This document shows positions 7,592 through 45,834 of a stretch of 64,000 nt of DNA, piece by piece. The notes below the pieces were generated by a model. The model worked only from the letters and a program-made list of their open reading frames with translations. It made no database searches and was not told the DNA's origin. This DNA is from a virus, in the IMG/VR virus record IMGVR_UViG_3300029122_000292; one strand, written 5' to 3'. Position 1 is the first letter of the stretch. Every line of letters begins with the position of its first letter. A program made the translations under genes and the position numbers.

Positions 7592-7892
7592 CGCCGTAAT
7601 CCTCCTCACTGTCGTTATCGTATTCTTCCAACCCATATAGCTTATGATATAAATATCGGGTCAAAGAAGGGGACATAGGCGTATAGTCTTCCATCCAGAG
7701 CGTATCATACAGTGAAGCATCACCAATAACTTCCTGCCAGTCCGCGTATACTTGAATCGCGTCAATGATATTTTCTACTGTGACACTATAATTACGCACC
7801 GCATCAACTACGGCGAATCCAATATTAAAAATATCCTGTTTTGAAAATTCTTCTTCTTTCATAATAGTCCTCCTTATAGAAGCGATTTGCAC
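7584..7892 (-). CDS. hypothetical acidic protein (102 aa)
   Basis: ORF track. Confidence 0.5.
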   Translation of the reverse strand: MQIASIRRTIMKEEEFSKQDIFNIGFAVVDAVRNYSVTVENIIDAIQVYADWQEVIGDASLYDTLWMEDYTPMSPSLTRYLYHKLYGLEEYDNDSEEDYGDE

Positions 7893-8095
7893 CGAAGTGG
7901 CTTCTTTAGTTTATCTAATTGGTTGTAAATATCTGCGATTTGCTCTTCTATAGTTTTTATTCTATCCCATGCGGATTCTTCTACAGGTTGTTCTTTGGGT
8001 ATGACAATAGCTGAATTTTTTGCTAAATCGCTCGATATCCAATAACCATAAGGGTTCTCCGGATTTCCAATAAAATCTAAGTCAATAACATCCAT
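7874..8095 (-). CDS. small protein with C-terminal ...RCKSLL tail
   Basis: ORF track; AGGAG ribosome-binding site upstream; member of the CxSLL-tail set. Confidence 0.6.
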   Translation of the reverse strand: MDVIDLDFIGNPENPYGYWISSDLAKNSAIVIPKEQPVEESAWDRIKTIEEQIADIYNQLDKLKKPLRCKSLL

Positions 8096-8107
8096 TTGGC
8101 GTCTCCT

Positions 8108-8335
8108 TTACAGTAAACTGTGACATACAAATGATTTCTTTTTCTTTATTTCAATACTTACTTCAGGACACCGCTCACGAAAAAAATCATATATTGCTTT
8201 ATCTGAAATGCAATCAAGTCCAACTAACTGTCCATCCGAAATTAACAATTCATCATCATAAGACCTGATACTGTCTCCGCGAGCGACCGCATCTATCAGA
8301 AGTCTTGCTCCTTCTTCTGTCCATTCAATAATCAT
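8108..8335 (-). CDS. small protein with C-terminal ...VCHSLL tail
   Basis: ORF 8108..8350 trimmed to ATG 8335 (MIIEW...). That ATG overlaps the upstream TGA (ATGA) and is preceded by AGGAG encoded within the upstream tail codons. Confidence 0.6.
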   Translation of the reverse strand: MIIEWTEEGARLLIDAVARGDSIRSYDDELLISDGQLVGLDCISDKAIYDFFRERCPEVSIEIKKKKSFVCHSLL

Positions 8336-8544
8336 AAAAGGCTCCTGCAAATAAACGATTTCGAATTTCTAATCATATACACAATTTGATCGTATATTTC
8401 TTTATCGGTTCTTCCCCAAAATCCATAGTATTCAAAATCTGGTTTAATTTTGCTTTCATCTATATCAGGTGCAAATGGATAAAGCTTTTTATATTCTCTG
8501 ACGAAACCTTTAATCATATTGAGTTCATCAATCTCATCTCTCAT
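8332..8544 (-). CDS. small protein with C-terminal ...ICRSLL tail
   Basis: ORF track; tail codons TGC AGG AGC CTT TTA TGA carry the ribosome-binding site and start of the next gene. Confidence 0.6.
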   Translation of the reverse strand: MRDEIDELNMIKGFVREYKKLYPFAPDIDESKIKPDFEYYGFWGRTDKEIYDQIVYMIRNSKSFICRSLL

Positions 8545-8948
8545 AATAGGCTCCTACATCTGAGTGGCCGTCTACTGGTTCGAATAATATCTTCCAAGCA
8601 TTCTGGCACGACAGAAAACCCTTTAAACAAATCAAACGTATTGCGGTATATTAAATCATCTATATTTATCTGTCGCATTTTATTTTCACAGATGTATCGA
8701 ACATCAGCTTCTCCATACAGCTTAGTGAATAATTTGCAATATTCAAACGACTTGGCCAATCCAAGATCTTCATCAAAGTAGAACATAGTACACTGTGCAT
8801 TCATTTTACTATAGTCAAACTTTTCACGAAATTCATCCGGCGATTTGCATATTACGATTACTTTGCGGTGTTTTTGTACAGTGTCTAAATTATCATACCA
8901 GTTACATACTGCTTGGTAGTTCTCTGGCTTTACGAATAATACTCTCAT
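8541..8948 (-). CDS. 135-aa protein with C-terminal ...RCRSLL tail
   Basis: ORF track; ATGA-type overlaps with neighbours. Confidence 0.6.
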   Translation of the reverse strand: MRVLFVKPENYQAVCNWYDNLDTVQKHRKVIVICKSPDEFREKFDYSKMNAQCTMFYFDEDLGLAKSFEYCKLFTKLYGEADVRYICENKMRQINIDDLIYRNTFDLFKGFSVVPECLEDIIRTSRRPLRCRSLL

Positions 8949-8978
8949 TGCGGTTTCCTCTGTGGCGCTGCGGCGCTC

Positions 8979-9398
8979 TTATAACAAGCTGTGGCATACT
9001 AGATTCTTTTTATTTCGTTCATGCCATGATGCTTTGATTTTTACGACATGATCTGGGGTCCACATATAGTCAAGCTCGATAGGATGTGCTAAATCCAGAT
9101 TGCTATCCTTATTAACAAGTCGGTAATAATTCATATCATTAAGCTGATCGAATTCTTTTGCAAGCCGTGTCGCTACATCACTCATGGAATTATAGGTATA
9201 TCCGGGTCCAAACCATATCTGATGAAATATTTTTGAACTATCGTCTGCTCTTAAATACCATGCTCTAAAATCACGGTACGATTTGAATGGCATGACCCAT
9301 ACCATGTTATTATCGTTTAATGGGACGTATATCCCATTTTTGGCGTTATAATTTACAGAAGTCAGCATTGCGACTCTGGCGGTTACAGTGTAATTCAT
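8979..9398 (-). CDS. 139-aa protein with C-terminal ...VCHSLL tail
   Basis: ORF track; start ATG overlaps stop of 9395..9658. Confidence 0.6.
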   Translation of the reverse strand: MNYTVTARVAMLTSVNYNAKNGIYVPLNDNNMVWVMPFKSYRDFRAWYLRADDSSKIFHQIWFGPGYTYNSMSDVATRLAKEFDQLNDMNYYRLVNKDSNLDLAHPIELDYMWTPDHVVKIKASWHERNKKNLVCHSLL

Positions 9399-9658
9399 AG
9401 TAAACTCCTACACGTGAGAGGTTTTAAATACCATGGCGTTGGTTTTGGCTCCCACTGGTTAAACAAACGTTCAAAGTAGAACCTTTCGTTTTTCTCGTCC
9501 AAGCACAATCTCACGTCGTGATAATTCACATATTTAGCGTCGGTATCGGCGAAACATTTTAAAATAGCGGACATCTCATTGTAAGTTTCTTTGAAGTAAC
9601 TGGAACGTCCCGTTTGTACGTAATCAATCGCTTCTTTTATAATTTCTTCTCGTGTCAT
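9395..9658 (-). CDS. 87-aa protein with C-terminal ...TCRSLL tail
   Basis: ORF track; tail codons TGT AGG AGT TTA CTA TGA embed AGGAG and ATG of the downstream gene. Confidence 0.6.
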   Translation of the reverse strand: MTREEIIKEAIDYVQTGRSSYFKETYNEMSAILKCFADTDAKYVNYHDVRLCLDEKNERFYFERLFNQWEPKPTPWYLKPLTCRSLL

Positions 9659-9685
9659 ACTATTGGGTTCCTCTAACTGTTGAAT

Positions 9686-10033
9686 TTATAATAGGCTATG
9701 GCAAACAAATGATTTTTTAGATTGCATTGTATACTTGCCGACTAATTGAAGATATTTTTTGTAGATTGCCTCTGCGGCGTCTCCATCAATTGTTTCTATA
9801 TGTTGTTCAGACATTATATCGACTTTGAAACGTTCTATTGATGAATCAAGTATGGAAGCTAATTCTGAATCATAATGTATGTATCTGCGGTCTACATCGA
9901 CATGAATTACAATAGAATCTATTTTTTTATTAAGTTCTTCGCTAAGCTGTTCACAGATATCCTTACTTGCGAGTTCTAGTATTTCTTTCTCATTCTTCTT
10001 GTAATTAGTCATTCCAAAAACATCTGTTATCAT
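9686..10033 (-). CDS. 115-aa protein with C-terminal ...VCHSLL tail
   Basis: ORF track. Confidence 0.6.
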   Translation of the reverse strand: MITDVFGMTNYKKNEKEILELASKDICEQLSEELNKKIDSIVIHVDVDRRYIHYDSELASILDSSIERFKVDIMSEQHIETIDGDAAEAIYKKYLQLVGKYTMQSKKSFVCHSLL

Positions 10034-10494
10034 AGCAAACTCCTACAGGTCAGTTGCACCGTTGGTCTTCCTATGGTTGGATCGTCCGCGTCCTCGATTT
10101 CTGGGTGAAACGCAACTTCGGATGGATCATATGTAGCTATAGAGCAGGCGGCAATATTACGACCTCCTATGATATGTTGCATACATAAATCAACATCGTC
10201 GATTACAACTTGTTTTGCGTTATATCCAAAGCTGGCGAGTTGGAAATCTAAGGCGTTAAAAACTCGAATAGTCAGTCGTTTTCCCTCAGTATCAACATAG
10301 ACTTCTCGCGAATCAACTCTGTATCCTCTATATGTCCATTTCCCGCAAGATGATTCGCATAAAAATATTATTGTTTTTGTCACTAGCTCCACATTAAGAG
10401 ATGTTGGTACAATAATATCACAGTCATTTTCAATTGCGTATTTACATATTTGATAGGTGCGACCACCGCCGCGTGGGGCGAATATTTTATACAT
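10030..10494 (-). CDS. 154-aa protein with P-loop-like N-terminus (APRGGGRT) and C-terminal ...TCRSLL tail
   Basis: ORF 10030..10512 trimmed to MYKIF ATG at 10494, which has AGGAGG 6 nt upstream. Confidence 0.55.
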   Translation of the reverse strand: MYKIFAPRGGGRTYQICKYAIENDCDIIVPTSLNVELVTKTIIFLCESSCGKWTYRGYRVDSREVYVDTEGKRLTIRVFNALDFQLASFGYNAKQVVIDDVDLCMQHIIGGRNIAACSIATYDPSEVAFHPEIEDADDPTIGRPTVQLTCRSLL

Positions 10495-10511
10495 GCTATG
10501 CAACCTCCTCA

Positions 10512-11267
10512 TTACGCGGCTTCTGGTTTGCGTTCAATCAATGGGAAGATCCCGTCTTTCTTTAATAAATCATAGATGAACAGACGACCTTTTTGAGTCC
10601 AATATGTGTGTACGTGGCTATGTGAGATTCCATTAGTATCTTCAGTAATAGACGTCTTAGTTACCGTGTAGCCTTGCTCGGCGTATTCTTGATAAAGCAG
10701 CCAGATACGTCCCTGCTGATATTGTATACGACGAGATCGCAGTTCCTGATTCATCTTCTGAGCGCTCCATCCATAGTCTTTAGCAATAACACTGATAGGA
10801 AGAGCATCAGGAGTCTGAAGAACCACATCATAGTAAGATGCCTTTGGCTGCATCTCTGCAAGCTGTTGTGTTTGGATAGCTACAGTTTCCTGAAGTGCTT
10901 TTACGCGAGCATTTGCGATAAGAAGAGCACGCTGCATAATCGCATCAGGAGAGTTCCACTGTTCTTCAATTTTGATAAAATACTGGCGTGCAATCTTGCC
11001 ACGTTCATTGCGCTGAATCATTGCAATTTCTTTTGCCATCGGAATAGTAAGCTGATGATCGGTTCGAGGCTTTCCTGCGAGGCCATCAGACCTATTTTCC
11101 AAAAATGGAACATAGTCTTCATTTTCTGTAAAACCGTAATCACACATTCTCTTGAACCATGTGGTGTAATTACTGTCAACATGGAGGAAATCGTAAAGTT
11201 CTCGACCGCTTACGGTTGGGCGTTCAGGATTTTCATAATTGATAGGGATTAAGTCAGTCATATTCAT
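10512..11267 (-). CDS. phage antirepressor (AntA N-terminal domain plus KilA-C-like C-terminal domain)
   Basis: N-terminal RELYDFL...TWFKR...GFTENEDY matches the AntA family. Confidence 0.7.
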   Translation of the reverse strand: MNMTDLIPINYENPERPTVSGRELYDFLHVDSNYTTWFKRMCDYGFTENEDYVPFLENRSDGLAGKPRTDHQLTIPMAKEIAMIQRNERGKIARQYFIKIEEQWNSPDAIMQRALLIANARVKALQETVAIQTQQLAEMQPKASYYDVVLQTPDALPISVIAKDYGWSAQKMNQELRSRRIQYQQGRIWLLYQEYAEQGYTVTKTSITEDTNGISHSHVHTYWTQKGRLFIYDLLKKDGIFPLIERKPEAA

Positions 11268-13076: not shown

Positions 13077-14790
13077 TCATTGTCCTCCTTGATAAGGATG
13101 TATTGGATATCGTTTTACGGTTAATATGTTTAAGTACTGTTTGTAAGGGCGAAATTTTGAGCTGCCAGAACATAGCGGGCGAGAAATGCTCTCAGCAGCA
13201 CAAACGGGACTTAAATATATCATGCCTATATTATACACCAAATTTTTGTTATTTGCAAGCGAAATTGCATATATTTTCCGGGGCGATACGTTGTTTTTTA
13301 GCGATGCTGCGCAGGACAGCTGCTTAATGGAGTGTTTAACGGCGTTTATGCGTGAAATGTGCGTTTTTAGTGGCATTTTTAGCGTTTTTAGGGCAAAATT
13401 TAACGTTTTTGATCAAAAAATGAGCGAAATTTGAGCGATCAGGGAAGTGAATTTTGGTCTTTATGGGATACTAGCGGGATGAAATTACGATGATAGGCGC
13501 AATTTATAACAATATAATATGATGTAAATTTGAACGATAATACGTTGTTTACCGGGTGATGCTTCGGGACGTTTTTTGGCTACGCAGCAATGTACTGTGG
13601 TATGGCGGCGTGTGGTGTTGTAGGCGACAGCTGTGCGATCTTGATGGGTGGAAATAGGGGCTGCAGAGCGGTGGTTGACATGGCTGTTGAGATTAAAATT
13701 GGGAAGTGAGGTGCTGCACAGATGGATGTAGAAATGTTGTGAGCTACGCAAGAGCTCGGGAGATTTAGGGCGTGATGGGGAGATAGAACAACTAAGCCCT
13801 TCGGGCTTCGCGCGGGCTGACCCCGGATTTTCAACCTGCCCCCCTCTTGCCCTGTCTATCATCCATTTTTTCTAGGATTCATGCGGCTTTTCGGCTAATA
13901 TGACCTTTTGTTAAAAGGTGGGATTAGGTAGTCCCTGAACACGGAATTTATACCTATTTATATATAGGCGACTTTCCATTCCGTTTTTGTGGGCGGTGGA
14001 TTTTGGTGTTTGTGCGCTTGTTGCAAAAATAAATAGATGGTCTATACTGTAGACACTCCAAGGGGAGCGGGAAACACCGGGAACGGCACCCACACCCCGG
14101 GGAGTAGTCGCACCTTGAAAATTGCAAAGTTTGGATTTTCCCATGTGGGCGGTTTATACCGCGCCGGGTATCCGGTCAAGGTTTATGCCTTGCCATTTTC
14201 AAAACATGGGTTTCCTATCTGAACAATTAGTGCGCCCAAACCCCGATGGCCAAACATTACCGGCATAATTCCCAAGAACGTGGGAGAAGTGCGGGGGGGG
14301 GCGGTGTACCTTGAAAACTGAACAAAAGGCAGAACCTAAGATAACACCACGGGGACTGTTATGCGCAAGCATAGTTTTGTAGAAAACGCCAAGGCCAGAG
14401 CTGGCGATAATAGATACAATACCAAAGATAGTACGGTTGTTTGATGGCGTAGAACCGCCTAGAGGAGAAAAAAGCTCTTGTACCACCCCTACTATAAGCT
14501 AGAATAGCGGGCAAGGGTGCAAGCAAAAGAACACCATTAGTTCCAGATGGGCAAAGTGCGCCAAGACTAACTAACGCACGATGGACAGCACACGGGCTGT
14601 ATAAGTCCGTGCCATAATGGAACACGGGCAACAGTGCAATGGCCTAGAGAAAAGCACAACCCCAAAAGCATATAAGCTGCAAGTGTAGCTTTACATAAAA
14701 GAGACGGTCATCGGTATGCACTCTCCAAAAGCGTACCGTACCAGAGCGCTAAACAATCCGGTTTAGTGCAAGTTTTTATAAGATGAGAGG
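13077..14790. other. 1.7 kb non-coding, locally GC-rich, structured region between divergent gene blocks; candidate origin/regulatory hub and/or ncRNA locus
   Basis: Only short mutually overlapping ORFs; phased (A)GCGTTTTTA(G) repeats at 13360-13430; GNRA-type hairpins such as AGCCCTTCGGGCT; G-runs. Confidence 0.4.
14017..14044 (+). promoter_or_regulatory. sigma70-like promoter TTGCAA-N16-TATACT
   Basis: Read directly from sequence inside the non-coding region. Confidence 0.35.
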
Positions 14791-14798
14791 TAACTATT

Positions 14799-15650
14799 AT
14801 GCTGAAAGTTTATGCTGATTATGACGCCATTGCTAAGGCGGGCAAGCTGAACGAACTGACCATCCCTGAACTGGTAAAGTTCTTGAATGACCAGAAAACC
14901 GTTCTGACCGCTGAGCAGTCTCAGAATGTCACCGCCACGCTCAACAAGGCAGTCGAAAATTCCAACAAGGCCGCCTGTGATGCAAAGTGTGGTGAGTTCT
15001 GCGCTATGGAACGTGCTGAAATGTGGCGTTCCTACGCTCCTAACCCATACTATCATGGCACCAAGATTACCACCGACCCCAAGACTATGGTTCTGTCCAC
15101 CCAGGATGCAAAGATGCTTATCAAGTTCAAGACCCTCGAAAAGTATTACCAGACCCTGAACGCTGTTGAAACCAACGACAAGGGAGAGCCTATGCCCAAC
15201 AAGGCGGTTTCTCTCTGCTCCAATGGCCGTTACGAAAAGCTGATTATGCTGTTCAACGGTATGCTCTCTGAGGAGACTGCAACCGAACTCAACGCGGCCA
15301 AGATGGTTCGTAGCACTAAGGTCGAGGAGACTCTCAAAGATATGGGTTTGGATTGCTTTGTCGGTCCTGTCAACAAGGGCAAGCGTCTTGCTCAGCTCCA
15401 GGCCATTTGGAACACCATGCTCCCCGAGGAACTGTCTGCAACTTGCACCGCACTGTCTTGTGACGTCAAGTATCTCAAGATTGCAGCAAACCGCGCAAAA
15501 CAGGGCTCTGTCAATGGCATTGGCGACAAGGCCATGATTGACGAGATTGTTGTCACCATCTCTAAGGGGCTGTCTTTTGATGGCAAGGCGCGTTCCTCTA
15601 AGTACGACTTTGCAAGCAAGAGCAAGTTCTTTGCCAAGGCTGAGCAGTAA
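14799..15650 (+). CDS. hypothetical protein (283 aa), GC3-rich with strong ribosome-binding site; probably highly expressed
   Basis: RBS GAGAGGTAACTATTATG; codon usage clearly differs from neighbouring AT-rich genes. Confidence 0.7.
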   Translation: MLKVYADYDAIAKAGKLNELTIPELVKFLNDQKTVLTAEQSQNVTATLNKAVENSNKAACDAKCGEFCAMERAEMWRSYAPNPYYHGTKITTDPKTMVLSTQDAKMLIKFKTLEKYYQTLNAVETNDKGEPMPNKAVSLCSNGRYEKLIMLFNGMLSEETATELNAAKMVRSTKVEETLKDMGLDCFVGPVNKGKRLAQLQAIWNTMLPEELSATCTALSCDVKYLKIAANRAKQGSVNGIGDKAMIDEIVVTISKGLSFDGKARSSKYDFASKSKFFAKAEQ

Positions 15651-15770
15651 CACACAGTAGTCGGATACCCTTTCGAGGTCGCACCGTTCAAAGCGGCCTC
15701 TTTCCAACGCAGTATGCGTAGCGTCTTAGAGTGTGGCGCATTTTGTACACTCAGAAAAGAGGTTATCACT

Positions 15771-16352
15771 ATGTCTTGTCCTTATGTCATAAGAGAAACC
15801 ATTGACGCCGACCACGTCCGTGAGCATGGGTATTACCAGCTTGACGAGATGGTTTATGACCTGACCCACGACTTTGCAAACGCAGATGTTAAGATCATCA
15901 CTCGCCCTGTGTACAATGTCGTCATGGAAAGTGGCGAAAGCCTTTCCGATGTGGACGACGAGACGGTGTTTAAGATGCTGTCTGCTGCTCTGCCTATTCG
16001 ACACATCGAAAATGCAAGGGATGGGTATATCATGTACTCTCGTCCTGAGAGCAAGCCCGCTGTCAAGGTTAAGACAGCCGATAGTATCACTCGTGCAAGC
16101 GTCACCGTTCGTGGCGTTAAACAGTATGATGAGCCTGTAATTTTGCCCATGGCGAGAGAGTGGTTTGTCGTCACTCATGCCGACATTCCTACTTGCCATT
16201 ACGGAACTGACGATGAACAGTATGCAACGAAGCGTTTCGAAAGAAGTGTTTCTAGAAAGTGGTACTATGACCCGTTCTATGACGAAGTTCGTTTGTATCA
16301 CAACGGACGTGTCATTCGTGCGGCTGTTTTGGGACACGAAATCGTTCTGTGA
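15771..16352 (+). CDS. hypothetical protein (193 aa)
   Basis: ORF 15714..16352 trimmed to the ATG preceded by AAGAGG. Confidence 0.55.
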   Translation: MSCPYVIRETIDADHVREHGYYQLDEMVYDLTHDFANADVKIITRPVYNVVMESGESLSDVDDETVFKMLSAALPIRHIENARDGYIMYSRPESKPAVKVKTADSITRASVTVRGVKQYDEPVILPMAREWFVVTHADIPTCHYGTDDEQYATKRFERSVSRKWYYDPFYDEVRLYHNGRVIRAAVLGHEIVL

Positions 16353-16503
16353 AAAAGGAGACCCGCCGGGTATGAAATCCTAAATAACATCTGCTGTCCC
16401 GGGTATGACGTTAAACTACTCACTCCCGCAAATTCAGAACGCCTTGACGTGGCGCGGGGGCTTTAAACTAAGATTCTGATAGAAAAGAGAGGTAATGCGT
16501 TAA

Positions 16504-17073
16504 ATGTTTAAAGACAGAAATGGCATAGTTATCCAGTGCGTCAATCGTAAAGGCATGACGTACAATGGGTGCAAAGTCCCGTATATGGGACTGTACGGCA
16601 CGCTCAACGGCAAGGAATTTGTTGCGGAGCCTCGTCTGAACGTGAAAACCGGAGAGATGCGACTCAAGCATCGTGACATGAAAACAAAATCCAGATGGGA
16701 CGATATCCCTGATAGGGCTATTGTTTTCCATGTTATCGAAGCGGCAAAGGTTGGATGCATCAAGCTTTACAAGTGGGAAACCAAAATGGTAAATCCCAAT
16801 CAGGACGAAATGAAAAAAGAGGCTTCTATTTGGCATAAAGAAGCTTCTAATCCTGACTGTATTAGACGTAAAAAGTATAAACTAAAATATCGTCAATCGT
16901 CTATGAGTGGCTACGGATACTCTGAACTTAGCTGCGCTCTTTACGGCGAATCCATTGAGATGAACGGAAAACAGAAAAAGCTGAACCGCTCTATGCAGAC
17001 ATATATGGATGGAACTGGCATGAGTTCTTCTTTTGATAATAGAGACAGAAGACCATTAAATCCAGCTATTTAA
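16504..17073 (+). CDS. hypothetical protein (189 aa)
   Basis: ORF track. Confidence 0.55.
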   Translation: MFKDRNGIVIQCVNRKGMTYNGCKVPYMGLYGTLNGKEFVAEPRLNVKTGEMRLKHRDMKTKSRWDDIPDRAIVFHVIEAAKVGCIKLYKWETKMVNPNQDEMKKEASIWHKEASNPDCIRRKKYKLKYRQSSMSGYGYSELSCALYGESIEMNGKQKKLNRSMQTYMDGTGMSSSFDNRDRRPLNPAI

Positions 17074-17097
17074 TCAAAAGCGGAAAGCGTTAATGAG

Positions 17098-17355
17098 TTA
17101 TTTATTGTTGCCGTGATTCCATTGACCATCTGCACCTAATTTTGGACTTGAATCATTTCCCAAATTTGAGTTTAAGCAAGTGATTTTATCGGATTGAAGC
17201 TGTTTGAGTTCTTTCGGCGTAAATCGAACTTTGATAAATGTTCCATTCTTTTTCGCAATTCCTTGCCGTTTGTTACATAAATGCTTATAACATAATCCAT
17301 CTTGAAAAACTGGGTTGTTACATTTAGGTCTATAACAAGTCAATTTCGGTTTCAT
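17098..17355 (-). CDS. small Cys-rich protein (85 aa)
   Basis: ORF track; CYRPKCNNPVFQDGLCYKH; lone minus-strand gene in the plus block. Confidence 0.45.
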   Translation of the reverse strand: MKPKLTCYRPKCNNPVFQDGLCYKHLCNKRQGIAKKNGTFIKVRFTPKELKQLQSDKITCLNSNLGNDSSPKLGADGQWNHGNNK

Positions 17356-25948: not shown

Positions 25949-25953
25949 CCTTT

Positions 25954-36092: not shown

Positions 36093-36235
36093 TCGCGCTG
36101 ATCCGAAAATAAACAACTGAATTCGTTATTGGTTACAACGATATTCTAAACACTGCAGCCGCTGGCAGGCCGGTTAAAGTCTGCCTTATATGTGTCCAGT
36201 ATCTGGGCTTTTAAATTAAACAGGAGGAAATACAT

Positions 36236-37753
36236 ATGGCTTTCACAGCTTATTCCAGCAAGATCGGTTCGAGAGATTGCGACGAAGCATATCCGTTGAT
36301 TCTGAATTGCGACAATAGCAATCTCAACGATAATGTGATGTTGTCTGTACTGCGCGTACTGATCAATGATGACCGTATCAAGCATTCTATTTCGGGAGGG
36401 CATCGCATTCAGTCAATTATTGATTGCCAACAGTTCTATATGGGCGACGACGAAAAGTTCACTAAGGACATGTTCGTTCATGAAGATAACGCTTTCAATC
36501 AGATGAAATTTGGCATCATGTTTCAGACGATCGACGATAAGAAAGCAGACGCCATTATTTCTGAGTTCAAGAAGTACAATGCGGATTACGAAGCTGCCGG
36601 TTGGAAGATCATGGATGTCGCAGCTAAGTACATCGATAAGAATGGCAACGTCTATGTATATCAGAATGAAAAGAAGCAGGGTGTTGTCGTTGTTTGTGCT
36701 AAGAAGAATCTGATTCAGGCCATGCACATGGCGGCGAGTTGTTTGCCAAACCTGATGCCGTGGTTTTTCGCTGATCAGCCGCTGACTGATGATGAGAAGG
36801 CGATGCTGCGTACTCTTTATGATCAGGACAACGAAGCTTTCGGCAAATACATGGAGAAGGCATACGAGACCGGCGATTTCTATGGTAAGAAGTTGCGTGG
36901 CGCTCTGAAGGGATTTTGCAAGAAGGATTATGCAAACGAAATTACCCGGCAGGAGCGATATATTCGTGAAATCCAAGATGAAATCGAAAGAAAATATAAC
37001 GATATCCGTGAGAGAAATAAAAATCTTGAAGAAGCTCAATTTAAACTCACTATGATCATGGACCGTGCTTGCTGCACTGAGGATGACGAAGCTGCAATTG
37101 TTAATTTCCTGAAGCGCTGCAAGACGCTGGTTTATCTTGACTCCAATAGTGATCGAATCTCTATTGGTTATGTTGGCACGCTAAACGATTGTGATGAGGG
37201 CGAGTTCCGCACTTGTGTTGAGAAAAAGGCAAATAGTCGAAGCTACATTTTTCAGCGTTCGCCGTATGACACGGAACTTACGAAAGATTTCTTTGTGTCA
37301 ATTTGGAAGACCCATCGGTTCGCTATTCGCACCTACTGTGAATGGCGACTGTATTCCAGCTGCAAGGTTGAAGCAATTCGTGGTTCTGATATGCAAGGTC
37401 GCTCTGATTTGATGAAGGATCGTATTCGTCAGCCCCATATCGATCGGCATGCGTGCTATAGCGGTTATCGAGAGATGCTCAATGCGCTTAGTGTAAAACA
37501 CGATTACATTGGCGTCCTGACTACGATTATTGGTTCAAGCGCATCTATCAACTGGAAGGATGGCACCGTTGTAAGCGACCTCATGTACGATTTGTTTGAC
37601 GAATACTATATCAAAACTCGTAAGTGTATCGAGGATAACGCGGGTAATCTGTACACGGTGGCAGAAGTATTTGATATTCTCAAGAACGAAAAGGACGCAG
37701 CAGCAACAGCAGAAGCAGTAAAGAAGGAGGTCGCTAAAGATGAAGCCCATTAA
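36236..37753 (+). CDS. hypothetical protein (505 aa)
   Basis: ORF track; GGAGGAAATACATATG. Confidence 0.6.
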   Translation: MAFTAYSSKIGSRDCDEAYPLILNCDNSNLNDNVMLSVLRVLINDDRIKHSISGGHRIQSIIDCQQFYMGDDEKFTKDMFVHEDNAFNQMKFGIMFQTIDDKKADAIISEFKKYNADYEAAGWKIMDVAAKYIDKNGNVYVYQNEKKQGVVVVCAKKNLIQAMHMAASCLPNLMPWFFADQPLTDDEKAMLRTLYDQDNEAFGKYMEKAYETGDFYGKKLRGALKGFCKKDYANEITRQERYIREIQDEIERKYNDIRERNKNLEEAQFKLTMIMDRACCTEDDEAAIVNFLKRCKTLVYLDSNSDRISIGYVGTLNDCDEGEFRTCVEKKANSRSYIFQRSPYDTELTKDFFVSIWKTHRFAIRTYCEWRLYSSCKVEAIRGSDMQGRSDLMKDRIRQPHIDRHACYSGYREMLNALSVKHDYIGVLTTIIGSSASINWKDGTVVSDLMYDLFDEYYIKTRKCIEDNAGNLYTVAEVFDILKNEKDAAATAEAVKKEVAKDEAH

Positions 37754-38636
37754 TATCACGGAGCAGGTTGTAGCAGATATGGCACGTGAATTTGTTCAGG
37801 AGCTGTATAAGACCGGTAGGGTTAAGACGGATTCTTTCTCATACAAGAAGAATTTTGCGTCTGTTAAAAAGGATGCTGTCGAGGTGAATTTCACCTATGA
37901 AGCGTATTCTCAGATGTTTGCGTTGATTGATCACTTCGATTGTGAGGTTGCATGGCGCGGCATTGTGAATCGTATCGATAAGACGCATTTTCAGATTACC
38001 AAGATTCTGCTGTATCCTCAGACTGTGACTGGTACCACAGTGGACACCGATCAGGAAGAATTTTCAAAGTGGTTTCAGGCGCTGCCTGTTGAAACGATTC
38101 GCAACCTGAGATTTCAGGGACACAGCCATGTCGATTTCGGTGTAACGCCGAGCAGTCGCGATATGGAGGATCAGTGGCGATTCATTGACGGACTCAAGCC
38201 GACGAGTTATCAGATTTTTATGATTTGGAACAAGAAGCGTCAGTATAACGTTCGCGTCATTGATCTGGCCGACAATGTCATCTATGAGGGAGCCGATGTC
38301 AAGGTTACTGTTGGAGATTTTGACTCGACTCGATTTCTCGAGGATGCAGACAAAACGGTTCGAAAGCGCCCTGTATATGTCGCAAGCACAGTCGCAAATT
38401 ACGGAGCTTATGGAGCAGGCACCTATTATGGTAAAGCAGTTACGCCGCAAAAAACGTACCCGCAAACAGTTACCACGCAAACGCCAGTGCCGCAAATCAA
38501 GACGGTAACTGGCGCAGCGGCTCCGAAAGTCAAGGAAGTGTCTGAGACTCGATATCCATTGGTCAATCATTACAAGGAGAATCCAGAAGATCTTGATACG
38601 TGCTGGAATTCCAGCTGTTTTCCGTATGACAATTAA
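37740..38636 (+). CDS. JAMM/MPN+ family metallopeptidase (298 aa)
   Basis: Canonical JAMM motif HSHVDFGVTPSSRD (HxHx7Sx2D) with upstream Glu. Confidence 0.65.
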   Translation: MKPINITEQVVADMAREFVQELYKTGRVKTDSFSYKKNFASVKKDAVEVNFTYEAYSQMFALIDHFDCEVAWRGIVNRIDKTHFQITKILLYPQTVTGTTVDTDQEEFSKWFQALPVETIRNLRFQGHSHVDFGVTPSSRDMEDQWRFIDGLKPTSYQIFMIWNKKRQYNVRVIDLADNVIYEGADVKVTVGDFDSTRFLEDADKTVRKRPVYVASTVANYGAYGAGTYYGKAVTPQKTYPQTVTTQTPVPQIKTVTGAAAPKVKEVSETRYPLVNHYKENPEDLDTCWNSSCFPYDN

Positions 38637-38651
38637 AGAAAGGACTACAAA

Positions 38652-39326
38652 ATGAATCTGAGTAAGCTTGAAATGGTATTCAACCCCGATGATATCAGCG
38701 GCCAGATCCACATTATTGGTTGTGGTTCGGTTGGCTCTACTGTGGCGGAACTTCTTGCACGGTATGGTCTGAAGAATTTCACGCTGTGGGATATGGACGA
38801 GGTTGAAAGCAAGAATATCGTCAACCAGATGTTCTTCGCCAACAATATTGAAGCTCCAAAGGTCGAGGCGGTTCGCGATATTATCTGTGCCATCAATCCT
38901 GATGCCAAAGATGAAATTGTTCTGAAGCCGAATGGTTGGCAGGGTGAGATGATTCGCGGTTATGTATTCCTCGCGGTCGACAATATCGAAATTCGCAAGC
39001 AATTCATGGAGGCGAACAAGTACAATCCGAATATCAAGGGTGTGTTTGATGTCCGCACCGGGTTCCATGATGCACAGTGCTGGGCAGCAGATTGGAGTAA
39101 GGAAAAAGACCGAGAGAATTTATGGAACTCTATGAATTTCTCTCATGAAGATGCACAGGCTGGCACTCCGGTTTCTGCATGTGGCATCGTTCAAGGTCTC
39201 GCCCCGACTGTTCGTTTCGTGTGTTGTTTGGCGGTTACGAACTTTATCAATTTCGCGACTAATATCGCACCTTTGAAGAAAATGATCGTTGCAAATCCGT
39301 ACACTTTTAACGTTACGGCTGCATAA
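38652..39326 (+). CDS. ThiF/MoeB-family E1-like adenylyltransferase (224 aa)
   Basis: Rossmann motif IIGCGSVGSTVAELLARYGL followed by LWDMDEVESKNIVNQ, as in the E1/MoeB/ThiF nucleotide-binding site. Confidence 0.65.
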   Translation: MNLSKLEMVFNPDDISGQIHIIGCGSVGSTVAELLARYGLKNFTLWDMDEVESKNIVNQMFFANNIEAPKVEAVRDIICAINPDAKDEIVLKPNGWQGEMIRGYVFLAVDNIEIRKQFMEANKYNPNIKGVFDVRTGFHDAQCWAADWSKEKDRENLWNSMNFSHEDAQAGTPVSACGIVQGLAPTVRFVCCLAVTNFINFATNIAPLKKMIVANPYTFNVTAA

Positions 39327-39375
39327 AGAATAAATAAAAAAAAATCGTGATGAATTACTGTTGAAATATACAGTC

Positions 39376-39393
39376 CTGCCGGATGACCGACAG
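39376..39393. promoter_or_regulatory. 18-bp imperfect palindrome CTGCCGGATGACCGACAG, copy B, at the head of the 290-nt leader upstream of the RT
   Basis: Identical at 18/18 to copy C and 17/18 to copy A. Confidence 0.5.
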
Positions 39394-39620
39394 GTTCGTA
39401 AAGGTAAGATCATATACATCCCACCGGGAAACCGAGGCGTGTGATCGCATGCGATGTACGTCGGCTCCGCAGGTATGCTGATTCGCTGATCGAAATAATC
39501 AACGTAGACACGTGCCGGCAATGAGCTCAAAACGCAAACCCGCAGGAAGACGTCCCGTCGAAGGCACCTCCCTGAGCATACAAACCACCATTTAGATCAC
39601 GATTTAGAAGAGGTAAACAT
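39394..39620 (+). ncRNA. candidate structured ncRNA / RT-associated RNA in the non-coding region upstream of the RT
   Basis: About 230 nt with no ORF; contains the perfect 12-nt palindrome ATCGCATGCGAT and several GC hairpins. Identity as msr/msd-like RNA is inference only. Confidence 0.3.
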
Positions 39621-40856
39621 ATGTACGTTACTTATTGGAATCCGCCGAGAACAAGGCAGATTACGTTTGATGAAATCCTTAGTGGAGTCGTTGACGTGAA
39701 CCAGTTGAAATATGCTGGCGATGAAACTTCTACTCGAACTGTACAGCGTAATGGGTTGAATGATCGTCTCGTAGCAATTACAAACGTTACCAATATGATT
39801 GCACGGCTCGCGGAATTCAATCAGAAATACGCTCGTCTTGAAGCAGTACGTGACCTGTCGACGTATTACTATCACTTTGAAATTCCCAAGAAGACTGGTG
39901 GCGTTCGTCCAATTGATGCACCGAACAATGAACTGAGCGATGCGTTGGTTGAGTTGCGGACGCTGTTAAAAAGTTTCATGATTGCTGATTATCACACGGC
40001 AGCACACGCATATATCAATGGGCGCGGCACTCTGAGTGCAATTAAAAAGCATCAGGCGGGACACAGATATACAGTAAAAGATCGTGAGACTGGGAAAGAA
40101 AAGATCGTCACCTATGAAAACAACTGGGCTGTCAAGTTTGACTTTCATGGATTCTTCCCGAGCTCCACTCCTGAGTTTATCTACAGTATGTTCAGAAAGA
40201 TTTATCCGTTTTCTCTCATTATGAAGGATCGAAATGGATACAATCAGCTGACTAAAGCGATGCGCCTGTGCTTCTTGAACGGCGGTCTTCCGCAGGGAAC
40301 GCCAATCAGTCCGTGGATCACGAACGTTATGATGATCCCGTTTGATTATATGTTAAACAAGAAGCTTTCTTACAAATATACCATGAAAGACGGCATTTCT
40401 CGCACTTTTACATACACCAGATATGCAGACGATATCACCATCAGCTGCTATTTGAGTTTTGACCCGATGGAAATGCAGGATATTATCAAAGAGACGTTGG
40501 ACGCAATCAATGCTCCGTTTACTTTGAATGAAGAAAAAACGCATTATGGTAATCGGCATTCGAGCGAAAACTGGATGCTCGGTCTGATGTGGAACGCCAA
40601 TAACGATATCACAGTCGGATGGCGCAATTTTAAGGACTTCAAGAAGATGGCATCTAATTACATCATCTGCAAGAAAGAAGGGAAAACGTGGGACCTTGAA
40701 GACTTGCAGCAGTTTAATGGCAGGCTGAATTACTACCGTATGGTAGAAAAAGAATCGGTTGACACGGTGATTTCTCGGTACAACGAAAAGTATCGTGTTG
40801 ATATGATGGCAATGCTCAAAGCTGACTTAAAACCAAAAGAAGGAGTTGTTTTCTAA
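39621..40856 (+). CDS. reverse transcriptase, retron/group-II-like clade (411 aa)
   Basis: RT motifs IPKKTGGVRPI, FDFHGFFPS, GLPQGTPISP, YTRYADDITIS; N-terminal similarity to retron RTs. Confidence 0.85.
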   Translation: MYVTYWNPPRTRQITFDEILSGVVDVNQLKYAGDETSTRTVQRNGLNDRLVAITNVTNMIARLAEFNQKYARLEAVRDLSTYYYHFEIPKKTGGVRPIDAPNNELSDALVELRTLLKSFMIADYHTAAHAYINGRGTLSAIKKHQAGHRYTVKDRETGKEKIVTYENNWAVKFDFHGFFPSSTPEFIYSMFRKIYPFSLIMKDRNGYNQLTKAMRLCFLNGGLPQGTPISPWITNVMMIPFDYMLNKKLSYKYTMKDGISRTFTYTRYADDITISCYLSFDPMEMQDIIKETLDAINAPFTLNEEKTHYGNRHSSENWMLGLMWNANNDITVGWRNFKDFKKMASNYIICKKEGKTWDLEDLQQFNGRLNYYRMVEKESVDTVISRYNEKYRVDMMAMLKADLKPKEGVVF

Positions 40857-41539: not shown

Positions 41540-41803
41540 ATGGATTACAAATATAAAATTGGACAAAAAGTACGAATTCGGAAAGACTTGACAGCTGGTG
41601 CAGAATATCCAATGCAGAGCGGAGAAAGCTATGGTTGCAATCCGGGAGTTAATGAAGATATGGAAAGATACCGTGGTCAACTTATGACAATCGATCGCCA
41701 AACATACGGTGTTTATACGCTCTGTGAGGACAACGAATATTGGAGTTGGACTGACACGATGTTTGAGTCTCCAAAACCACTTACATGTAAAAGTCTTTTG
41801 TAA
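41540..41803 (+). CDS. 87-aa SH3/KOW-like small protein with C-terminal ...TCKSLL tail
   Basis: ORF 41426..41803 trimmed to MDYKYKIGQKVRIRKDL. Confidence 0.55.
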   Translation: MDYKYKIGQKVRIRKDLTAGAEYPMQSGESYGCNPGVNEDMERYRGQLMTIDRQTYGVYTLCEDNEYWSWTDTMFESPKPLTCKSLL

Positions 41804-42636: not shown

Positions 42637-42909
42637 ATGAATTATAGATTTAAACCCGGTGACAAAGTGACCGTTAGAAAAGATTTGGCGACATATGAAA
42701 CGTATCATATGTTATCTGGAGAAACCCCATGTGATGCCATTATTGCTACTTATTCTATGGAAAATCTTCGAGGGAAACAAGTCACAATCGAGAACTATGA
42801 TTGTTGTGGGAGTGCAATGTGTTACAGGGTAAAAGAAAGCTCCAGATATTGGGCAGATGAAATGTTTGAAGAGTCTAAAAAGCCGTTTACGTGTAAAAGT
42901 CTATTATGA
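42637..42909 (+). CDS. 90-aa SH3/KOW-like small protein with C-terminal ...TCKSLL tail
   Basis: ORF track; KPGDKVTVRKDL...WADEMFE. Confidence 0.6.
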   Translation: MNYRFKPGDKVTVRKDLATYETYHMLSGETPCDAIIATYSMENLRGKQVTIENYDCCGSAMCYRVKESSRYWADEMFEESKKPFTCKSLL

Positions 42910-42925: not shown

Positions 42926-43210
42926 GTGTCGAAAAGCAAGTACAAATATAAGAATGGAGAAGCAATTCGCGTCAGGGAAGATCTTCAATCTGGAACAGTT
43001 TATTACATGAGATCTGGTCCAGAACCGGATGCCAATGGTATTGAGACGTCATGGAGTGGACGTGGACAAGTAGGTTATCGTGGACAAATTGTACATATTT
43101 CTCACAAAGCAAACGGTCGATACAAAATTCTTGAAGACGGAAAAACATATTATTATACGGATGAAATGTTCGATCGTCCAAAGAACTTGATTTGCAAAAG
43201 TTTGTTGTGA
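42926..43210 (+). CDS. 94-aa small protein with C-terminal ...ICKSLL tail
   Basis: ORF track; GTG start after AGAGG. Confidence 0.55.
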   Translation: MSKSKYKYKNGEAIRVREDLQSGTVYYMRSGPEPDANGIETSWSGRGQVGYRGQIVHISHKANGRYKILEDGKTYYYTDEMFDRPKNLICKSLL

Positions 43211-43219
43211 GGTGATTGT

Positions 43220-43375
43220 ATGAATGAAATCTGGTGCGTGATTGAATGCAGTTCAGATGGCGAAATCTTTCAGCCTGATTTTTTCAATTCAAAGGAAGAT
43301 GCGGCTGCATTTATTGAGGAAGAGACAAAAGAATGTCTTTTCAATATGGCAGATTTACCTGGGCTGATAGAATGA
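43220..43375 (+). CDS. very small acidic protein (51 aa)
   Basis: Own translation MNEIWCVIECSSDGEIFQPDFFNSKEDAAAFIEEE...; GAGGTGATTGTATG. Confidence 0.35.
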   Translation: MNEIWCVIECSSDGEIFQPDFFNSKEDAAAFIEEETKECLFNMADLPGLIE

Positions 43376-43489
43376 CCGATATCGTTGACGGGGAACCGAT
43401 TGGAGGGGTATGGACGGATAAATACAGTTGGGTTTGGCATAGCTTTGAAGTTACTAATAAAATTGAAAAATTAAAGGAGAATAATAACA

Positions 43490-45562
43490 ATGTCTGATTT
43501 CAAGAAATTTCGTGCACTGCTGCAGAACCACTTCAATGAGATGGTGAAGGGTGAGAATCCACTGTTTATCACCGATGCAGACGAGGATGAACTGTACAAT
43601 CTGTATCTTGATAGTTTCCCGGCCGGCACAAATGAGCTGTTCCGTAAGCGGCGCGAGTATGACTGTTCCTGCTGCCGCCGTTTTGTGAAGAATATCGGCA
43701 AGCTGGTGGCGTTTGACAAGAATTATAATTTGATTTCCATCTGGGATTTCGATGCAAAGTCTGCCAAGTATCAGCCTGTTGTTGATACGCTGGCTGCCTA
43801 TGTAAAGAGCCGCGCCATTGTGAATCCGTACTTTGTCAGTCGCAATATGATCGGTTCTGGGAATATGTTCGGCACCGAGATGAACTACGAGTATGATGAA
43901 AACCACAATGATGTATATACTTGGGATCATTTCGCAGTCAAGATTCCGCAGCGTTTTATTACCAGTGGAGATGACGTGGCTACCAAGATGGCACAGTGGC
44001 GTGACTCCGCAAACGTGTTCAAGCGTTCTCTGGAAGAGCTAACCATGGAGGCTGTTGATACTGTGCTGGAGCTGATTGCTCAGAATAGTCTGTATCGCGG
44101 CAAGGAGTTTGAGCGATCTGTAAAGGAGTTTAAGCACGATAAGATTGACTATGACAAACTGTCTGTTAATGAAAAGCTTGCCTTTGTATGGCTTGCCCCT
44201 ACGTATGCTACGGCGGCGCAGCTTCGTATTCGTAACACCGCTATCGGCACCCTTCTTATCAATTTGAGCGAAGGTATGAACGTGGATGCAGCCGTTACTG
44301 CCTTCGAGAAAGTTGTTGCTCCCGCAAACTATAAGCGTCCCAAGGCGATTTTCACCAAGAAGATGTTGGAAGATGCACAGAAGACTGTCACCGAGCTGGG
44401 CTATATGAGCAGTCTGGGTCGTCGGTTTGCTACTCTGGATGATATCACCGCCAACAATATCTTGTTCTGCAACCGTGATGCTGCTTCTCGTATTGCTGGT
44501 GCTACAAATCCGTTTGAAGCAATGGCTAAGACTGTTGCGATTGATCCCAAGAAGTTTAACCGTGCAGAAGAAATTGGCATCGACAAGTTTATCAAAGACG
44601 TGCTGCCGACTGCAACTGGTTTGGAACTGTTCATGGAAAATCGTTTCGAGAAGAATATGATGTCTCTGATTGCACCGCAGGATAAGACTGCGCCGAGCAT
44701 GTTCAAGTGGCCGAATGGTTTCAGCTGGGCATATACCGGTAATGTGACTGACAGTCAGATCCGCGAGAACGTCAAGAACGCTGGTGGCAAAGTCGATGGC
44801 GTGCTGCGTTTCTCTATTCAGTGGAACGATAAGCCGGGTGAATGGGATGAAAACGATCTCGATGCCCACTGTGTTGAACCGAATGGCTTTGAGATCTATT
44901 ACGGCGACAAACGAGATTTGCGTACCGGTGGTAATCTGGACGTGGATATCATTCATCCTAATTGTAATAAGGCGGCTGTTGAGAACATCACTTGGTCTGA
45001 CATCAAGAAGATGAAGGATGGCGAGTATAACTTTTCTGTTCATTGCTTCTCTAACCGTGGCGGCAAAACCGGCTTCCGCGCAGAGATTGAATTTGATGGT
45101 CAAATCTACTCCTTTAATTATAATATTCCGCTGCGTCAGACTCAGATTGTTTCTGTTGCTACTGTTGTGTTGAAGGATGGGCAGTTTACTATTAAGGAAC
45201 ATCTCAATAGTTCTACTTCTTCCCGTGAGATCTGGGGTGTGAATTCCAATCAGTTCGTACCTGTGTCTGTGGCGATGTACTCTCCGAACTACTGGGATGA
45301 GCAGACTGGCAATGGCAACCGTCACTACTTCTTCATGCTCAAGGATTGCGTCAACCCTGAAAAGCCCAATGGTTTCTACAACGAATTCCTGAAGGCGGAA
45401 CTGCTACAGCATAAGCGTGTGTTCGAGGCTCTCGGTTCTCAGATGGCGGTTCAATCGGTGGATGACCAGCTGTCTGGTGTTGGCTTCTCTGAGACGAAGC
45501 ACGACTCCCTCATTGTCAAGGTGCAAGGCGCTACTGAGCGAGTTCTGAAAGTGGTGATTTAA
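43490..45562 (+). CDS. hypothetical protein (690 aa), GC3-rich
   Basis: ORF track; AAGGAGAATAATAACAATG; no recognisable motifs. Confidence 0.7.
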   Translation: MSDFKKFRALLQNHFNEMVKGENPLFITDADEDELYNLYLDSFPAGTNELFRKRREYDCSCCRRFVKNIGKLVAFDKNYNLISIWDFDAKSAKYQPVVDTLAAYVKSRAIVNPYFVSRNMIGSGNMFGTEMNYEYDENHNDVYTWDHFAVKIPQRFITSGDDVATKMAQWRDSANVFKRSLEELTMEAVDTVLELIAQNSLYRGKEFERSVKEFKHDKIDYDKLSVNEKLAFVWLAPTYATAAQLRIRNTAIGTLLINLSEGMNVDAAVTAFEKVVAPANYKRPKAIFTKKMLEDAQKTVTELGYMSSLGRRFATLDDITANNILFCNRDAASRIAGATNPFEAMAKTVAIDPKKFNRAEEIGIDKFIKDVLPTATGLELFMENRFEKNMMSLIAPQDKTAPSMFKWPNGFSWAYTGNVTDSQIRENVKNAGGKVDGVLRFSIQWNDKPGEWDENDLDAHCVEPNGFEIYYGDKRDLRTGGNLDVDIIHPNCNKAAVENITWSDIKKMKDGEYNFSVHCFSNRGGKTGFRAEIEFDGQIYSFNYNIPLRQTQIVSVATVVLKDGQFTIKEHLNSSTSSREIWGVNSNQFVPVSVAMYSPNYWDEQTGNGNRHYFFMLKDCVNPEKPNGFYNEFLKAELLQHKRVFEALGSQMAVQSVDDQLSGVGFSETKHDSLIVKVQGATERVLKVVI

Positions 45563-45834
45563 TGGCTCGTTACAAAGTCGGAGACAAGGTACGCTTAATC
45601 GATAATTTTGTGCAATACGAAGAGTATCATATGCGAGATCGGAATAACAATCCCGGATATACTATAACAGTCAAGTGGTCATTAGAAGAAAGAATGAAAC
45701 TTGCTGGAAAAATTGTGACGATTGCTGAAGTTGGAGAATACTACCGAATCGAAGAAGACAACCATAGTAAACATTGGACTGATGATATGTTTGTTGGCAC
45801 GGCAAAATGTCTTGTTTGTCGGTCGTTACTGTAA
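45562..45834 (+). CDS. 90-aa SH3/KOW-like small protein with C-terminal ...VCRSLL tail
   Basis: ORF track; ATGG overlap with upstream stop. Confidence 0.6.
   Translation: MARYKVGDKVRLIDNFVQYEEYHMRDRNNNPGYTITVKWSLEERMKLAGKIVTIAEVGEYYRIEEDNHSKHWTDDMFVGTAKCLVCRSLL

Follow-up and report, generated by a model that had tools for sequence, protein, structure and literature searches.

A short C-terminal peptide shared by small phage proteins differs between phage lineages and may act as an address tag

Introduction

In phage T4, a short N-terminal peptide, the capsid targeting sequence (CTS), is carried by IPI, IPII, IPIII and Alt, unrelated small internal proteins that come from a hypervariable locus and include anti-defence proteins. 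The CTS sends these proteins to one shared destination. It acts via the scaffolding core, belongs to late genes and is removed when the prohead protease cleaves an L/I-x-E site. Here, we describe a C-terminal peptide of similar distribution in a DNA stretch of 64,000 nucleotides from the virus record IMGVR_UViG_3300029122_000292 (the window), where thirteen small open reading frames (ORFs) end in the tail C-[K/R/H]-S-L-L. As with the CTS, a short terminal peptide is the sole feature common to unrelated small proteins from a hypervariable locus. However, the tail is located at the extreme C-terminus, has no evident cleavage site and is carried by genes that look early or middle, and the packaging of its carriers is hypothetical.

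The targeting peptides of encapsulins are also short, C-terminal and shell-specific, and they bind an HK97-fold shell through hydrophobic and ionic contacts; that of Myxococcus xanthus reads PLTVGSLRRGG (PMC7925596). The cargo of family-1 encapsulins resembles the proteins described here in that an extreme C-terminal peptide (7-12 residues in encapsulin cargo) follows a flexible linker on unrelated proteins, and the M. xanthus PLTVGSLRR is similar to KPLTCKSLL of the window. In contrast, the conserved G-S-L core of the encapsulin peptides does not occur as such here, where only S-L is found. Encapsulin cargo genes adjoin the shell gene, whereas the carriers of the tail lie 6-45 kb from the capsid gene, and a phage head must also hold DNA.

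Three further systems share single features with the tail. ssrA-type degrons likewise have an exposed non-polar C-terminus with a free carboxylate, there read by a common machine; they are, however, set by the host and uniform, while the tails described here differ among phages that share hosts and span 8-10 residues. The arbitrium peptide AimP of the RRNPP systems also has lineage 'dialects' of an extreme C-terminal peptide and occurs in the same phage group (aimP is annotated in SPbeta), but AimP is a single secreted pro-peptide of ~43 aa, whereas each genome studied here encodes 11-20 or more cytoplasmic globular proteins with the tail, none with a signal sequence. Finally, as in F-box and SOCS-box proteins, fast-evolving small binding modules share one docking element, and a ubiquitin-like operon lies among the carriers; F-boxes and SOCS-boxes are, however, folded and 40-50 aa long, while the tail has 7-10 residues and the type of the ubiquitin-like module does not track the tail dialect. 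The principle of a shared terminal targeting peptide is thus already known. What is new is that such a peptide is C-terminal and occurs in temperate gut phages, that it is present on at least 24 protein families and that it has genome-wide dialects, including a wholesale Cys-to-Phe switch.

Results

Thirteen genes of the window end in the same pentapeptide

Judging from its genes, the window is part of a temperate SPbeta-group phage of ~150 kb from human gut metagenomes. Six-frame translation showed that C[KRH]SLL ends eight consecutive genes on the minus strand (7874..10512) and five genes on the plus strand (with ends at 35095, 41803, 42909, 43210 and 45834), where the preliminary description of this DNA had placed them; only the start 34872 was off frame by one base, the in-frame ATG being at 34871. 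The pentapeptide occurred 13 times in the six frames, in all cases (13/13) right before a stop codon and never internally, and no other window ORF of at least 40 aa ended in SLL. Only 0.035 such ends were expected from shuffled sequence and 0.001 from composition.

On the minus strand, the tail genes encode proteins of 73 aa (7874..8095, ending KKPLRCKSLL), 80 aa, or 75 aa from the ATG at 8335 (8108..8350, KKSFVCHSLL), 70 aa (8332..8544, SKSFICRSLL), 135 aa (8541..8948, RRPLRCRSLL), 139 aa (8979..9398, KKNLVCHSLL), 87 aa (9395..9658, LKPLTCRSLL), 115 aa (9686..10033, KKSFVCHSLL) and 160 aa, or 154 aa from the ATG at 10494 (10030..10512, TVQLTCRSLL). The 73-aa protein has an acidic body with an isoelectric point of 4.1 and belongs to no Pfam or PHROG family. 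The plus-strand genes encode proteins of 74 aa (34871..35095, PTKLTCKSLL), 87 aa (41540..41803, PKPLTCKSLL), 90 aa (42637..42909, KKPFTCKSLL), 94 aa (42926..43210, PKNLICKSLL) and 90 aa (45562..45834, AKCLVCRSLL).

The bodies of these proteins had been described as unrelated, which is true in part. The N-termini of the carriers are unrelated, and most of the minus-strand proteins have nothing but the tail in common. On the plus strand, however, the carriers are paralogous: the genes starting at 41540, 42637, 42926 and 45562 encode SH3-like paralogues (BLASTP, 2e-10 to 2e-20) that match phrog_7488, a PHROG without known function, and the product of the gene at 34871 belongs distantly to this SH3-like family. 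Three minus-strand proteins (8108, 8332 and 9686) also show weak similarity (~5e-5). A Pfam scan of the carriers gave no family match. The earlier statement that the tail defines no described family holds: no Pfam or PHROG family corresponds to it, and in the library of papers searched, full text included, nothing relevant was found on the motif or on capsid targeting by a C-terminal signal in tailed phages.

The tail is a modular peptide on a flexible end

We modelled the protein encoded at 42637..42909 with AlphaFold2 (AF2) from 60 homologues. Residues 1-80 were predicted to form an SH3-like beta-barrel with a predicted local distance difference test (pLDDT) score above 90, while the tail (residues 81-90) scored 56; in this model, the tail is a flexible appendage on the carrier body. 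A Foldseek search of the model against the PDB returned generic SH3-like matches only. The last five residues were invariant among 13 near-identical phages, in which positions -6 to -12 varied and family members were gained and lost. Among the 120 database homologues that match the SH3-like family best, 116 also end in the pentapeptide. The upstream pattern K/P-x-(P/S)-(L/F) given in the preliminary description holds roughly, with K at -9 in 57%, P at -8 in 43% and L or F at -7 in 96% of the tails. The tails carry a charge of +2 to +5, and by itself the tail scores only ~13-22 bits as a profile.

Across all fetched loci (~170), the distinct carriers numbered 635, had lengths of 45-201 aa (median 91) and fell into 24 body families; no large or annotated protein had the tail. 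The family of the gene at 10030..10512 was followed by searching the full library with the body. Its homologues of 123-134 aa end without a tail, whereas those in tail-carrying phages continue with a linker of ~25 residues and then a tail of the type that the phage uses, with endings such as …LTCRSLL, …LQCRSLL, …NECYCESLL, …SECVCDSLI and …GECYCETLL. Homologues outside this phage clade have no tail. These results show that the tail was gained modularly by unrelated families that elsewhere have none.

The tail is conserved as a peptide. In the window, its Ser is written TCG, TCA, AGT or AGC and its Leu CTT, CTA, CTG, TTA or TTG, followed by TAA or TGA; in 609 distinct tails of relatives, Ser is encoded by AGT, AGC, TCA, TCG, TCT or TCC and Leu by all six codons. 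Because the choice among synonymous Ser and Leu codons is free, even between the TCN and AGY sets of Ser, it is the peptide and not a DNA repeat that is under selection, as had been proposed from the window. The same variation led us to reject a DNA-level repeat, whether attC-like, a variable region of a diversity-generating retroelement or a junction repeat.

Each genome uses one dialect of the tail

Relatives were fetched via the exonuclease gene (77) and via the E1 gene (~65). Their tails fall into three types. Dialect A, that of the window, reads [K]-[P/S/Q]-[L/F]-x-C-[K/R/H]-S-L-L (199 distinct proteins), dialect B N-E-[C/Y]-x-C-[E/D]-S-L-[L/V/I] (410 distinct proteins) and dialect C Φ-x-F-[R/K/H/E]-S-L-L (14 distinct proteins). 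The S-L-L end is shared by all three and only rarely replaced by T-L-L, S-L-V or S-L-I. Position -4 is K, R or H in A, E or D in B, and R, K, E or H in C, so that the charge is reversed between dialects; Gly at -4 was seen in only a few B tails (for example CMCGSLL) and is never the commonest residue. Of 480 ORFs that end in [ST]-L-[LIV], 459 have Cys at -5. Dialect C was limited to one phage, IMGVR_UViG_3300045988_127729 (loci L124 and L229), in which Phe replaces Cys in 12/12 tails (seven near the polymerase gene and five near E1) and Cys is found in none. This phage represents a natural single-residue dialect switch and is therefore well suited to locating the reader of the tail.

Every locus had a single dialect, and no mixed locus was seen among ~130 loci. 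Furthermore, ~51 contigs, matched by contig name, were sampled at two regions ~36 kb apart, and the dialect agreed in all of them. Seven body families were found with two or three dialects, among them the family of the 135-aa protein at 8541..8948 (A and B) and that of the 115-aa protein at 9686..10033 (A, B and C), and each time the tail matched the dialect of the host phage. Because the tails of orthologues match the phage in which they sit, the dialect is a property of the genome and not of the protein family.

More distant clades that carry the E1 operon have shared tails of a different kind. In the locus L089, 11 genes (1513..9984) end in (I/L)(D/N)(L/I)EE(F/I)I (…DLEEFI); L030 (7576..12132) and L033 have …E(L/M)xLLS (…ELLDLLS), L025 (13744..20454) has SFDDLLKGAxx, L060 (4251..5097) EFAxLIF and L086 (9945..13082) SISD(F/L)I. 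The carriers of these tails are likewise small and mostly SH3-like. In L100 (3576..19354), a group of proteins ends in …WLKWLKSExxE, but the similarity reaches well upstream of the tail, and this group may simply be paralogues. As a control, internal 7-mers gave 0.01 cluster members per locus. No shared tails were found in SPbeta or in Thomasclavelia phage TR-TP1, and hence no established model phage carries the tail system.

Candidates for the reader of the tail

Phages of dialects A and B share alleles that are 95-100% identical, including those of the RNA polymerase, PhoH, the terminase, a scaffold-like 170-aa protein, a 144-aa protein of the head block, the 690-aa phrog_1735 protein, an AAA protein, a Band7 protein and others. 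The presence of near-identical alleles in both indicates that A and B phages recombine and therefore share hosts. Different dialects on shared hosts make a host receptor a poor explanation; on balance, the reader would be phage-encoded. That all tags of one genome have a single reader is a claim we make with greater assurance and consider probable, since phages are uniform and lineages differ, which points to one co-evolving partner.

The allele screen for such a reader covered ~42 kb of the ~150-kb genome, including an SPbeta-like block that lies downstream, just outside the window, with genes for the exonuclease, terminase, portal, a 545-aa protein, the 170-aa protein and the capsid protein. 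Alleles common to both dialects led us to reject the RNA polymerase, the scaffold-like protein, the terminase, PhoH, AAA, the 690-aa phrog_1735 protein and Band7 as readers. Within the screened part, the alleles that never crossed dialects were those of the capsid protein (331 aa), its neighbour of 171-177 aa, a 71-aa protein, a 70-aa basic protein and the whole module from the ubiquitin-like gene to the integrase; those of the 545-aa protein and the exonuclease were also dialect-pure, although weakly. In the capsid protein, 15 alignment columns separate the dialects fully, all within residues 193-306, and the immediate neighbours of the capsid gene cross dialects freely. In addition, two groups of dialect A phages (A1 and A2) with the same tails have capsid proteins that are 90-92% identical, while the proteins of their ubiquitin-like modules are only 39-53% identical. 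On these alignments, the link between capsid and dialect is an association, not proof.

A ubiquitin-like module lies among the tail genes

The operon at 35853..40856 (+) starts with a gene for a ubiquitin-like (Ubl) protein of 79 aa that ends in …KHDNA followed by TGMN. It continues with protein X, of 505 aa, which has an invariant PNPHID..C motif and no detectable homologue, a JAB/JAMM peptidase (37740..38636, +; motif HSHVDFGVTPSSRD) and a ThiF-family E1 (38652..39326, +). A spacer of 294 nt with terminal inverted repeats (AUCGUGAU…AUCACGAU) separates the E1 gene from the last gene of the operon, which encodes an adjoining retron-type reverse transcriptase (PADLOC RT_II-A, 2e-37). In relatives, the first protein has 75-87 aa and a conserved C-terminus …K-x-D-N-A followed by 0-4 variable residues. 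A variable extension after a conserved C-terminus is the hallmark of a JAB-processed ubiquitin-like modifier, which this protein would therefore be. The profile of protein X gave coiled-coil noise only against PDB sequences, and no E2 or E3 was recognised. The operon was found in hundreds of contigs of Clostridia phages and could represent a retron-linked ubiquitin-like system that has not been described before.

We rejected the E1 as an enzyme that activates the tail, because the operon has its own Ubl-like substrate and exists without tails and because Phe can replace Cys. The carriers were likewise rejected as E1 substrates of the ThiS-MoaD/Ubl type, since the modelled carrier is an SH3-like barrel ending in Leu-Leu with no beta-grasp fold and the 75-87 aa protein fills this role.

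Other features of the phage

Next to the tail array, and always after it, are two conserved genes without a tail (7415..7636 and 7584..7862, both on the minus strand), which encode two charged proteins. One is very acidic and has 92 aa (…EEDYGDE); the other, of 70-73 aa, is highly charged (…WDDEE), and the alleles of its C-terminal part are dialect-specific, with 12 of 70 columns fully splitting A from B. Among the plus-strand tail genes, the gene at 43490..45562 (+) encodes the 690-aa protein, which has a full-length match to phrog_1735 (E 4e-258) and is 89-96% conserved across dialects; its orthologue in L014/L015 is labelled DUF8224.

A YonO-type single-subunit RNA polymerase is encoded at 4496..7045, and an antirepressor and PhoH are also present. 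The window contains 8 or 9 tRNA genes, a transfer-messenger RNA (tmRNA), a twister ribozyme and an island for the salvage of nicotinamide adenine dinucleotide (NAD). The tmRNA (29113..29499, +; Rfam RF00023, 96 bits) lies in a tRNA cluster (Pro, Met, three Leu, Gly) and has the predicted tag ANYNSYRCAA, in which the Cys is unusual; the tag of L014/L015 is ANNNSYRCAA, and the gene is missing from some near-identical relatives (L001 and L002). We rejected a link between this tag and the tail, since one of these two tags is found whatever the dialect and neither is like the tail.

The ribozyme (21777..21866, +) is of twister type P5 (Rfam RF02684, 47 bits against a gathering threshold of 37.6) and lies in the poorly coding part of the window. 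This part (13500..27000, ~13 kb) has short ORFs only, which overlap on both strands; its nine longest ORFs gave no Pfam match, and stop-codon recoding restored no long ORFs. Recoding was rejected, because reading through TAG or TGA fuses no genes and TAG is merely rare genome-wide. A scan for promoters and terminators gave results no better than shuffles. The genes at 46256..52631 (+) encode an AAA/nSTAND3 ATPase, a phosphoribosyl-pyrophosphate-synthetase-like protein (phrog_619), a NAMPT-like protein, a Macro domain, NAD synthase and an isochorismatase-family (nicotinamidase-like) protein and likely form a NAD-restoring counter-defence island. The capsid-protein cluster is present on 974 contigs, and the phage is very common in the human gut.

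Discussion

We propose that the tail is a short linear motif, standing by itself at the C-terminus after a flexible linker, that would serve as an address or docking tag. The phage would append this tag to a changeable set of small accessory proteins, and one trans-acting partner would read every tag in the genome and co-evolve with the tags. Foremost among the candidates for this partner is the inner surface of the procapsid, formed by the YonB-like capsid protein, in which case the tag could load small effectors into the head, to be delivered together with the DNA. Among the roles suggested in the preliminary description, a docking or packaging signal agrees best with the new evidence. That the capsid is the reader and the tag loads effectors into the procapsid is a tentative idea, and we hold the full chain, from the C-terminal address tag through one co-evolving phage-encoded partner to capsid loading, just as tentatively.

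Several points weigh against loading into the capsid. The packaging of the carriers is proposed from analogy and from the co-segregation of alleles. This co-segregation could be plain clade structure, since the exonuclease and the 545-aa, 71-aa, 171-aa and 70-aa proteins are dialect-pure as well. If the reader sensed only the invariant S-L-L end, as it might, allele sharing would exclude nothing, and the screen that points to the capsid gene is one of only ~42 kb of the ~150-kb genome. The position of the carriers does not suggest late genes either. In SPbeta, the start from which YonO transcribes the late operon lies downstream of yonO (PMC5467207). Here, the eight-gene array is found upstream of the gene for the polymerase and the remaining carriers sit in an accessory island, so that the carriers appear to be early or middle genes. 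No carrier lies inside the 10-kb block of head genes, and the arrays are ~6-10 kb upstream of it and ~45 kb away. SPbeta and TR-TP1 have the same head-gene layout and no shared tails. Finally, the protein is putatively identified as the capsid protein by the name given in the source, PF27364 and synteny with SPbeta yonB, and its AF2 model, from a shallow alignment, had a pLDDT of 39.

A less probable alternative is that the tail docks the carriers on another shared hub, be it a phage protein encoded outside the ~42 kb screened or a host hub such as a PDZ-type protein or the sliding clamp, or that tails bind each other and thereby join the carriers in one complex. The terminal position, flexibility, modularity and dialects of the tail support this in the same general way as they support an address tag. 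The S-L-L-COOH end, invariant in A, B and C, fits the class I PDZ ligand rule [ST]-x-Φ-COOH in all dialects, and the acidic-hydrophobic tails of other clades (DLEEFI, ELLDLLS, EFAxLIF) resemble hub-binding motifs. However, no PDZ, TPR or clamp gene was recognised among the ~55 window proteins scanned, and a host hub does not account for dialects among recombining phages. For the clamp, the leading Gln of the QL[SD]LF motif is missing, since Gln does not rank with the frequent residues at -5 or -4 and was found at -4 only in isolated dialect B tails, and self-association is unfavourable at the positive charge of the tails.

Two further explanations appear unlikely. C-terminal degrons of similar length, such as ssrA-LAA and the tail of MuA, are well established, and the tail might be a timed-degradation tag through which a protease or adaptor removes early accessory proteins later or keeps them low in lysogens. 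The exposed, flexible, non-polar C-terminus ending in -LL is compatible with this, as are carriers that look early by analogy with the start of the SPbeta late operon. A host protease should nevertheless give phages that share hosts one tail, while A, B and C differ, and 8-10 conserved positions with a charge reversal are more specific than known degrons. Scans of the 64-kb window found no protease or adaptor, and the alleles of the one nearby AAA+ gene are 97% identical across dialects. The ssrA-like host degron of the preliminary description is weakened accordingly: phages that exchange genes, and so share hosts, carry different tails, and the phage's own tmRNA tag is unrelated to them and does not vary with dialect.

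The second of these, to which we give no better a chance, is that the tail is a docking box that recruits the carriers to the Ubl-X-JAB-E1 module (35853..39326), as substrate receptors or as targets of conjugation. The arrays of carriers turn over fast and consist of small domains of the binding type, tail genes flank the module in many lineages (in L089, four lie between JAB and E1), the module is present in every tail-carrying phage sampled at both regions, and its alleles never cross dialects. The neighbourhood of module and tail is partly an effect of ascertainment, however, because the loci were largely fetched through E1. The module also has a small Ubl-like substrate of its own and is present in relatives without a detectable shared tail (L018/L019, L231-L247), and the two module types found with dialect A are as far apart as A from B, while their tails are identical in type.

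Chemistry at the Cys is very improbable. The ThiF-family E1 would adenylate the C-terminal Leu and the Cys at -5 would attack to give a five-residue thiolactone, or the Cys would be lipidated or bind a metal. The E1 gene itself and the near-constant Cys favour such a role, as does the ring format of staphylococcal autoinducing peptides (AIPs), in which a Cys is followed by four residues and the two end positions are hydrophobic. Against this, the E1 has a dedicated Ubl-like substrate and its module occurs without tails, and the tails of other clades have no Cys. Since a phage with Phe in all of its tails exists, a thiolactone, prenylation, acylation and an obligatory metal site are all disfavoured, and modification at the Cys, proposed in the preliminary description, loses ground with them. 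An AgrD/AIP thiolactone was rejected because Phe can replace the Cys and because the proteins end at the would-be ring, so that they have no C-terminal leaving group of the kind that AgrB removes; a CaaX box needs Cys four residues from the C-terminus, whereas the Cys here is at -5 and replaceable by Phe.

Hardly more credible is a tail without a function of its own, arising as a side effect of translation signals that overlap, of a DNA repeat or of gene conversion where cassettes join: although arrays are tightly packed, AGGAG is embedded in 49 of the 199 dialect A tails together with a start/stop overlap of the form ATGA, AGG is the codon of Arg at -4 in 50 tails (49 of these 50 with the ATGA overlap) and similar embedding occurs in L089 (GAG GAG) and L025 (AAA GGA G), no Shine-Dalgarno sequence is present in 75% of A tails and in 100% of the 410 B tails, Ser switches between TCN and AGY, Leu uses six codons, the peptide is kept in tails that precede long spacers, and a ribosome-binding site cannot fix C, S, L and L. 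The codon data largely refute this explanation, and ribosome-binding-site overlap was rejected as the cause, because most tails have no Shine-Dalgarno sequence. Dual coding does occur in the window at 8332..8349, 8541..8558, 9395..9412 and 10030..10047 (all on the minus strand), where the Arg-Ser codons AGG AGY are the Shine-Dalgarno sequence of the next gene and the genes overlap by ATGA; in the gene at 8332..8544, the tail codons AGG AGC .. TTA TGA double as the Shine-Dalgarno sequence and ATG of the next gene.

Returning to the address tag, each lineage may run a private 'postcode' that sends tagged small proteins to one phage-encoded receptor, possibly the interior of the procapsid, although we regard this only as a possibility. 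If this reading is true, new effectors could be plugged in freely within a lineage, and the cargo sets of sister lineages would be mutually incompatible. If the tail is an address label, it would reveal the whole accessory set at once, comprising at least 24 families of unknown function, and the carriers would be predicted to share a destination or fate. Dialects A and B and the dialect that arose by a single Cys-to-Phe step would then offer a traceable case of co-evolution between peptide and receptor, whose reader could be found by comparative genomics. A portable tag of ~10 residues, if it loads heads or recruits proteins to a phage enzyme, would be useful for phage engineering. The different shared tails of other clades suggest that the phenomenon may be general and overlooked.

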